From an uncultured Bacteroidota bacterium (GTDB lineage Bacteria; Bacteroidota; Rhodothermia; Rhodothermales; DATKEJ01), in assembly GCA_963768715.1 (NCBI GenBank), contig CAVYJC010000011.1, positions 4,050 to 68,049 on the forward strand: a DNA stretch of 64,000 nt. Direction: 5' to 3'. Of this stretch, positions 32,881 to 32,978 are shown one piece after another. A model generated the notes under the pieces. The model saw nothing but the letters and a program-made list of their open reading frames with translations. It had not been told where the DNA came from and ran no database searches. The position numbers and the translations under genes are program-made. Positions within the stretch are counted from its first letter, which is position 1. Each line of letters begins with the position of its first letter.

Positions 32881-32978
32881 AACATCTAATACCGAACACC
32901 GAACATCGAACACCGAACACCGAACACCGAACATCGAACATCGAACATCGAACATCGAATACCGAACATCGAATATTT
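32881..32978. repeat. tandem heptamer array (AACAYCG-type), 14 units, 98 nt
   Basis: Begins 3 nt after the TGA at 32876-32878. Read directly. Confidence 0.95.

Follow-up and report, generated by a model that had tools for sequence, protein, structure and literature searches.

The C45-tRNA-Leu locus and its heptamer array

The 64-kb window analysed here, meaning the whole stretch of contig CAVYJC010000011.1 under study, comes from an uncultured Rhodothermales bacterium and carries a set of short tandem arrays with seven-nucleotide units, located between genes. The main array was found on the + strand by Tandem Repeats Finder (TRF; 32879-32973, CGAACAY repeated 13.6 times) and by a scan for exact runs. 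It comprises about 14 heptamers of the types CGAACAT, CGAACAC, CGAATAC and CTAATAC. Measured between conserved anchors it is 97 nt long (32879-32975), and it fills the entire spacer from the stop codon of a C45-family peptidase/acyltransferase gene (Pfam AAT, 31901-32878, + strand) to a conserved TTATCAT..GCATTC motif. The TGA stop (32876-32878) stands immediately 5' of the array; an earlier, sequence-only reading of this DNA had recognized the array near this stop but placed its beginning 3 nt after it, slightly too far, since the array starts directly after the TGA, at 32879. The C45 gene is the last of a cluster encoding an aminotransferase, a CN-hydrolase, a decarboxylase, an ATP-grasp protein and the C45 protein, and a tRNA-Leu(CAG) gene (33127-33213, + strand) follows 151 nt 3' of the array. 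The order C45 to tRNA-Leu is kept in the related loci L068 and L069 (L-numbers designate the loci of relatives and of other genomes compared with the window).

The TTATCAT(N1-3)GCATTC motif is conserved at the 3' edge of a heptamer array both in the window (32975-32995) and in L069 (6228-6245). In L069 it stands directly before the tRNA-Leu gene, and in the window about 130 extra nucleotides lie between motif and tRNA; the motif may be a promoter of the tRNA. Assignment of the DNA to a lineage bearing the type IX secretion system (T9SS) is reasonable, since two window proteins have a T9SS C-terminal sorting domain, a Bacteroidetes-style TonB receptor is encoded, and the C45 protein is 99% identical to a protein labelled 'MAG: Rhodothermales bacterium' (MAG, metagenome-assembled genome) and 80% identical to that of a second Rhodothermales MAG; a look-up for a protein identical to the C45 sequence gave no record.

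Excess of period-7 arrays

Tandem runs of every period p were counted by a single criterion, namely 12 or more successive bases each identical to the base p positions further on, with 200 third-order Markov simulations as the chance model. The window contains seven exact runs of period 7 against a simulated mean of 0.005; among the other periods from 4 to 15 there is one run at period 6, two runs at period 14 belonging to the same array, and none elsewhere. Period 7 is thus the only enriched period, and the earlier claim that the arrays form a non-random class with one shared period and differing units holds, with seven such arrays detected by TRF. Arrays occur about once per 9 kb.

The excess is a property of the lineage. 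In 47 kb from seven loci of close Rhodothermales relatives, five exact period-7 runs were found, a density matching that of the window, and all six TRF arrays have period 7 (five of seven in the 64-kb window). Twelve Anaerolineae loci (193 kb) contain 11 exact runs, period 7 accounting for 17 of 24 TRF arrays, and 68 distant metagenomic M1-peptidase loci (707 kb) contain 12, with 15 of 32; this last set, gathered by a metagenome scan with the M1 peptidase whose relatives are at most 52% identical, is a background sample and not an orthologous comparison. In 55 loci from other phyla (884 kb) only two exact runs and 3 of 23 TRF arrays have period 7, and the spectrum is flat. The preference for period 7 therefore recurs in unrelated lineages with unrelated units, depending on neither unit sequence nor phylum, while array density varies about fifty-fold among lineages. 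As a finding this is real and has very strong statistical support, yet it represents a new lineage for a known phenomenon.

Variation among relatives

Over 3.67 kb, L068 is 98.9% identical to the window at the nucleotide level, and between identical anchors its main array measures 62 nt against 97 nt in the window. The difference of 35 nt between these near-identical strains equals exactly five units of 7 nt, which is what whole-unit slippage predicts, and the surplus of the window consists of blocks of identical neighbouring units (CGAACAC three times, CGAACAT four times). The sequence-only reading had judged the arrays unlikely to be random slippage; this does not stand, as the sole length change measured in the window arrays is exactly 5 x 7 nt, and the non-random part is the preference for period 7.

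At the same stop codon L069, whose C45 protein is 80% identical, carries about 12 units of other heptamers (AAACGAG/AAACGCT). This array overlaps the stop codon, and the C-terminal end of the protein is encoded within it; a second array, (TTTCATT)5, lies just 5' of the same tRNA-Leu gene. No array follows the C45 stop in L070 (82% protein identity) or L071 (79%). The C45 orthologue of L006 (Anaerolineales) ends within (TAATTGA)4.6 and its close relative L144 has two copies of TAATTGA, while L143, L145 and L146 show no array at the C45 stop.

A second informative site lies upstream of an M1 peptidase gene, where ACGTCCG GGGTCCG AAGTCCG AAGTCCG is found in L072 (nucleotide identity about 90%) as well as in the window, and where L073 (about 70% nucleotide identity) has (ACGTTCG)4 at the same position and beside the same conserved flank. 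Judged by these alignments, the site is old but its units have been exchanged, one variant taking the place of the others, and the unit at the edge seems to be the ancestral one. By comparison, both arrays found in the window 3' of a K+ channel gene are absent from L072, where the two genes overlap and leave no spacer, and so is a decayed array at 24675. Arrays thus gain and lose whole 7-nt units between strains, and appear and vanish between related species; together these comparisons amount to microsatellite-type dynamics, with whole-unit slippage, birth and death of arrays, and homogenisation.

The same comparisons bear on the suspicion that the arrays might be an artefact of assembly, for which only the general difficulty of assembling repeats can be adduced. 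Every array is shorter than a typical read, and the same arrays occupy the same sites in independent assemblies from other samples (L068, an NCBI MAG, and L072, a Logan assembly), which leaves this explanation a negligible probability.

Other arrays of the window and their non-coding placement

In a divergent spacer upstream of a TMEM164-family gene, a heptamer array of GTCCGTG x3.6 (1425-1459, + strand; TRF core 1427-1451) consists of the units ACGTCCG TGGTCCG TGGTCCG TGGTCCT GTGTCCA. The same spacer holds an octamer array, GACTAGAA x4.4 (1582-1616, + strand), with degenerate units to about 1632, in agreement with the 8-nt array previously noticed near 1583. A convergent spacer of 116 nt (19903-20018) is made up of array, hairpin and array. 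The first array, GACGTCC x3.9 (19905-19931, + strand; ACGTCCG x3 in another phase), starts 2 nt past the stop of the open reading frame (ORF) 19375-19902 and is nearly self-complementary. A strong hairpin (19938-19992) separates it from the second array, CTAATGA/CCAATGA x4.7 (19991-20023, - strand, TRF), which reads TTAGTCA/TTGGTCA on the sense strand of the K+ channel gene (minus strand), and the first unit of which provides the TAG stop (20019-20021) of that gene.

The array of the M1 site, GTCCGAA x2.9 by TRF (24604-24623, + strand; 24595-24623 with a degenerate first unit, then four units), precedes the peptidase start (24491, minus strand) by about 110 nt. Farther upstream in the same spacer TRF detects the decayed array of GGAATGN / AATGAGG type x4.6 (24675-24706, + strand), with the units GGAATGA GGAATGC GGAATGA TGAACGC GGAATGG. 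Sixty nucleotides upstream of the start of a DUF6786 ORF (63160, minus strand), GACGTCA x3.3 (63221-63243, + strand; ACGTCAG x3 in another phase) abuts a hexamer array, GAATTT x3.8 (63242-63264, + strand), to form a compound repeat. The TCGCACC array reported at 63284 is present (63284-63311, + strand), although it is weak, having two perfect units followed by degenerate ones, and falls below the TRF threshold.

All window arrays lie outside supported coding sequence, as had been claimed. Those at 1427 and 1582 fall in the arginine-rich N-terminal extension that one ORF has ahead of its TMEM164 domain, the domain beginning only at residue 105; those at 24604 and 24675 are upstream of the true M1 peptidase start, which was set at 24491 by homology with L072 and by a signal-peptide-like N-terminus; and the remainder are situated between ORFs. 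In the window, arrays either precede start codons by 60-110 nt or lie on the 3' side of a gene, about half of them being 5' of genes. Across all loci 48 of 51 arrays are in spacers, even with crude ORF calls, and the arrays are thus confined to non-coding DNA.

It could be argued that such arrays are phase-variation (contingency) loci, which switch neighbouring genes by slippage, given that copy number is hypervariable and that some arrays lie upstream of genes of secreted or surface type, such as the M1 peptidase with its signal peptide. However, no array is located within a reading frame or demonstrably between promoter elements, and the longest one lies beyond the 3' end of its gene. No common theme unites the neighbouring genes, which encode polyamine-type enzymes, an ion channel, a peptidase and DUF proteins, and copy number at the M1-upstream site is equal in the window and L072. 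We regard such a switching role as very improbable.

Docking of arrays at stop codons

Three window arrays had been described as lying at stop codons, and they do: that at 19905 begins 2 nt past a stop, that at 19991-20023 contains a TAG, and that at 32879 follows its stop directly. Positional enrichment was examined for 48 arrays of period 7 that TRF detected in the window and in every locus with arrays, each being placed uniformly within its own spacer. Fourteen of the 48 overlap a stop codon or lie at most 6 nt from one, against 3.2 expected, and none of 200,000 simulations reached 14; the gene calls are crude and the L068 case is forced by a spurious ORF, so that fair figures are about 13 versus 2.2. 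Some docked units contain stop triplets and thus create the stop, but CGAACAY, GACGTCC, GCGTGTT and AACGGTG do not. A common composition, or a bias resembling a Rho site, was also considered for the stop-adjacent arrays and rejected, as their sense-strand units have nothing in common.

This adjacency is one argument for regarding the arrays as functional elements of gene 3' ends or untranslated regions (landing pads for Rho or RNA-binding proteins, terminator stems, or spacers) kept near stops by selection. The main array adds another: its sense strand is C/A-rich and G-poor, a composition found in no other array, and its RNA is predicted to be unstructured (z = 0.13), so that 97 nt resembling a Rho loading site would follow the stop directly. 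The array-hairpin-array layout of the 19903-20018 spacer, and the persistence of array sites upstream of M1 and at the C45 stop, are also what a 3'-end role would lead one to expect.

In two high-GC soil metagenome contigs, L122 (20799-20899, 9644-9741 and 21591-21697) and L090 (3138-3187), pairs of heptamer arrays in inverted orientation form perfect hairpins of 20-40 bp right after stops. The L122 hairpin folds at -91.8 kcal/mol (z = -11.6) and that of L090 has z = -6.5; no inverted pair of this kind occurs in the window. These predicted structures, which likewise favour a 3'-end role, suggest that some arrays may have been recruited as 3' hairpins.

For the arrays in general such a role is nevertheless unlikely. 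No motif, composition or strand bias is common to them, about half of those in the window are 5' of genes, the same sites are empty in relatives with about 80-92% protein identity, and near-identical strains differ by five units in copy number. Most arrays other than the main one are also without significant structure, and in the convergent spacer, where folding is significant on the + strand (z = -3.06 for 19890-20030), strong folding is confined to the unique sequence that separates the arrays at 19905 and 19991. Scans for promoters and terminators around three array-bearing spacers gave nothing above shuffle expectation, and no terminator-like site was detected at window arrays; no sigma-70-like promoter was found around the arrays in a scan that does not cover the promoter types of this lineage, and at the gathering threshold Rfam recognizes only tRNA in the window. 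Any function, including the spacing control, binding sites or recombination hotspots suggested by the sequence-only reading, is unproven, and none of the folding, Rfam, promoter and terminator scans gave evidence of a sequence-specific one.

Unit families

Units are far more alike within a genome than between genomes, and the earlier view of the arrays as a family is supported in this respect. Pairs of units differing by at most one mismatch, in any rotation and on either strand, make up 24% of pairs within a locus versus 2.6% between loci (permutation P < 2e-4), and eight such similar pairs within a locus are more than 200 nt apart. Units also recur in separate spacers of one genome in L006 and L012. 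The GTCCG core noted previously in three units is real and stronger than was claimed, given that four window arrays (1425, 19906, 24595 and 63222) open with ACGTC[C/A]G, in one phase and on the + strand, and that two of these four have the 10-mer TGGACGTCCG in common. As far as can be told from unit sequences, the ACGTC[C/A]G arrays are related, whether by descent or by a common seeding process. The eight window arrays comprise about six distinct units, and only the ACGTCCG-like group recurs (four loci), whereas CGAACAY, TGACYAA, GGAATGN and TCGCACC are each seen once. Two candidates for over-represented genomic motifs, as in the case of HIP1, were rejected: ACGTCMG occurs 30 times in the window against 28.6 expected, and GGACGTCC three times against 2.7.

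The array at 1427 stands apart in its flanks. It is bracketed by the inverted hexamers TTGGAC/GTCCAA and, outside these, by two perfect copies of the 9-mer GATCTTCTG in direct orientation (1413-1421 and 1460-1468); the layout of 1413-1468 resembles a 40-nt insertion with terminal inverted repeats and a target-site duplication, and is seen at no other array.

These observations raise the question of whether arrays are seeded or spread actively, by a tiny mobile element, by targeted insertion or by gene conversion of a founder unit, and are amplified by slippage only later. The common opening unit on one strand, the shared 10-mer, the recurrence of units within L006 and L012 and the duplication-like flanks at 1427 are in favour of such seeding, and common oligomers do not account for the sharing, as ACGTCMG is not over-represented. 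Horizontal spread without a known mechanism has been suspected in the literature as well (PMC4679880). Against this, the flanks are found at one of about ten arrays only, no window array has a transposase or another candidate enzyme linked to it, four of the window units are seen only once, and common founder units could equally be diverged ancient arrays or the outcome of a sequence-dependent propensity to slip; active seeding is on balance quite improbable.

Comparison with known heptanucleotide repeats

It has been reported by Mrazek et al. (2007) that heptanucleotide repeats are the most abundant, or most over-represented, class of long simple-sequence repeats (LSSRs) in many bacterial genomes, and polymerase slippage was put forward as the cause, in connection with the length of DNA that the polymerase holds, as that work is summarised in later papers (PMC4679880, PMC4692102). 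As far as these summaries go, the LSSRs and the present arrays agree in having head-to-tail 7-nt units longer than chance, mostly in intergenic positions, in the dominance of period 7 among units of 5-11 nt, in a sporadic phylogenetic distribution and in whole-unit slippage. In the 64 kb of the window and the fragments of relatives, these features of a heptanucleotide LSSR were found: tandem length beyond chance, an excess of period 7 over other units of 5-11 nt, a non-coding location and copy-number change by whole units. As differences, Rhodothermales and Anaerolineae are apparently not among the lineages described, and neither stop docking nor genome-specific unit families figure in the description as summarised.

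Flexibacter litoralis, Gramella forsetii, Aequorivita sublithincola and Elizabethkingia anophelis carry a T9SS. In these four bacteria, intergenic TAACTGA arrays mixed with other heptamers have been described by MacGregor (2015; PMC4679880). Bacteroidetes heptamer arrays were thus already published, and the contention of the sequence-only reading that no such family was known from a T9SS-bearing lineage cannot be maintained. The author also reported that in Gramella and Aequorivita the corresponding site of close relatives is without an array, that Cyanothece strains differ by indels in 7-nt steps, and that one array directly follows a stop (PMC4679880). The TAACTGA system of Beggiatoaceae, Cyanobacteria and Bacteroidetes therefore has in common with the window arrays intergenic heptamers in the Fibrobacteres-Chlorobi-Bacteroidetes (FCB) group, several heptamers per spacer, arrays missing in close relatives, 7-nt-step indels and some arrays right after stops (PMC4679880). 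It differs in that no window unit equals TAACTGA (the minimum cyclic or reverse-strand distance is 3) and in that its arrays run forward a few nucleotides upstream of starts, where the window arrays are not concentrated; with both unit and position different, the window arrays do not belong to this system.

Another likeness is offered by the cyanobacterial short tandemly repeated repetitive sequences (STRRs), the sequences of which were reportedly described by Mazel et al. in 1990, and the earlier comparison with them was apt in kind. STRRs and window arrays are both 7-bp tandem units in non-coding DNA, of unknown function, with several unit families per genome and some hairpins. Two units of the 19991 array, in the TGACCAA phase, are equal to TTGGTCA by rotation and reverse complementation, as the sequence-only reading had stated; TTGGTCA would be the unit of STRR2, and the match is within chance. 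Similarity of the window and related units to STRR1-3, TAACTGA, GGGGAYT and GGGAATC is not significant, with 2 exact matches in 322 comparisons (46 units x the 7 units of these families; P = 0.09). The STRRs belong to another phylum, and here nearly every locus has its own unit instead of a few units occupying many loci; with units different from the STRR sequences and a host that is not cyanobacterial but of the Rhodothermales, the arrays are not members of the STRR families proper. In filamentous cyanobacteria, STRRs have been characterized as repeats of 7 bp whose function is unknown (PMC2670836), and they are mentioned also in PMC4692102.

The G-rich heptamers GGGAATC/GGGGAYT of Xanthomonas and Nostoc were studied by Rehm et al. 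(2015), who found extensive variation in length and sequence at conserved sites among Xanthomonas species, and inverted pairs between convergent genes (PMC4692102). They resemble the present arrays in being intergenic heptamers, in varying strongly among close relatives at the same gene pairs and in occasional convergent inverted pairs; however, the window units have no runs of three or four guanines and cannot form quadruplexes. In the Anaerolineae MAG locus L004, an array of (TCCCCAA)x10.9 at 2224-2299 reads GGGGATT on the opposite strand, and GGGGATT is a quadruplex-forming unit enriched in Nostoc PCC 7120 (PMC4692102). A literature search found no paper on heptamer repeats in Rhodothermales, including Rhodothermus or Salinibacter.

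Origin and maintenance of the arrays

From these comparisons we consider it likely that the arrays are heptanucleotide LSSRs, of the same kind as the cyanobacterial STRRs and the heptamer excess of Mrazek et al. Their length would change through replication strand slippage or unequal exchange between units, and loops of 7 nt may escape mismatch repair, leaving the changes uncorrected. Arrays would then survive only where an indel of 7 nt is harmless, as within a gene it causes a frameshift. The first bases past a stop would carry no signal, allowing arrays to accumulate against stops; deletion may strip the unique spacer next to the stop while the array regenerates itself, whereas 5' of genes arrays would be held tens of bases off by promoters and leaders. 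Most arrays would thus have no sequence-specific function, and a few have perhaps acquired a role, such as that of stem or spacer in a 3' hairpin.

Several points weigh against this account. Slippage alone leaves unexplained the genome-specific units, as well as the common first unit ACGTC[C/A]G and the shared 10-mer. Adjacency to stops is very strong, and deletion bias is a conjectural account of it. The C45 stop carries an array in three lineages with three different units (the window with L068; L069; L006 with L144), which could indicate a hotspot or a function, and the M1-upstream array persists to relatives with only about 70% DNA identity. The sample, moreover, consists of the 64-kb window and fragments rather than whole genomes, with crude gene calls. 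Stop docking, the shared founder unit and the recurrent C45-stop array together leave a small chance that an unrecognised active process, operating in several phyla (Rhodothermales, Anaerolineae, cyanobacteria and Beggiatoaceae), places a genome-specific founder heptamer (here ACGTCCG) in intergenic DNA, preferentially at stops, by means of a tiny mobile element or a dedicated enzyme and with later expansion, or else that the arrays have a general function at 3' ends.

The Rhodothermales, and incidentally the Anaerolineae, are hereby added to the lineages with dense heptanucleotide repeats. Any account of why the period should be seven has to fit three observations, namely the whole-unit differences between strains, the turnover of units with retention of the edge unit, and the four-fold excess of docking at stops. 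In practical terms the arrays are useful as strain markers, and they call for care in gene calling, as spurious ORFs cross them and as they can encode real C-termini. Their biological importance is modest unless the dispersal and docking signals reflect an active mechanism.

Neighbouring genes and further repeats

The five genes ending with C45 (24993-32878; class-III aminotransferase, CN-hydrolase, Orn/Lys/Arg decarboxylase, ATP-grasp and C45 peptidase) are syntenic with loci of Anaerolineae (amino-acid identity about 70%) and of a Lysobacterales MAG (about 60%), the loci concerned being L006, L008, L027, L143 and L144, and the flanking genes are unrelated between these loci. A scan of the genome collection with the aminotransferase returned relatives about 72% and at most 73% identical, all of them from Anaerolineae. 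The cluster, of polyamine-pathway type, has probably moved between phyla by horizontal transfer.

A segment of about 917 nt (33282-34198) that contains an ORF for a DUF6036 nucleotidyltransferase (33578-34048) is present in the window and absent from L068. It lies directly after the terminator hairpin of the tRNA-Leu gene, and no direct repeats flank it. The DUF6786 gene (61854-63160) is split into two ORFs, 62225-63160 corresponding to profile positions 2-235 and 61854-62219 to positions 260-375, which points to a frameshift, a pseudogene or a sequencing error.

Repeats of other kinds were also encountered. The motif GTCATYCC(S)(R)(M)(S) occurs five times against 0.55 expected, only in repeat-rich spacers and in both orientations (24640-24908 and 42162-42216), which suggests a dispersed element similar to repetitive extragenic palindromic (REP) sequences; the region 24730-24800 is partly conserved in L072. 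TRF further detects two longer tandem repeats in the window, at 8270-8566 (102 nt x2.9, 98% matches) and at 51629-51903 (139 nt x2.0), and in the Anaerolineaceae contig L144 dense spacer arrays with units of 20/41 nt, 25 nt and 41 nt are found at 4332-4594, 4742-4829 and 14648-14904.

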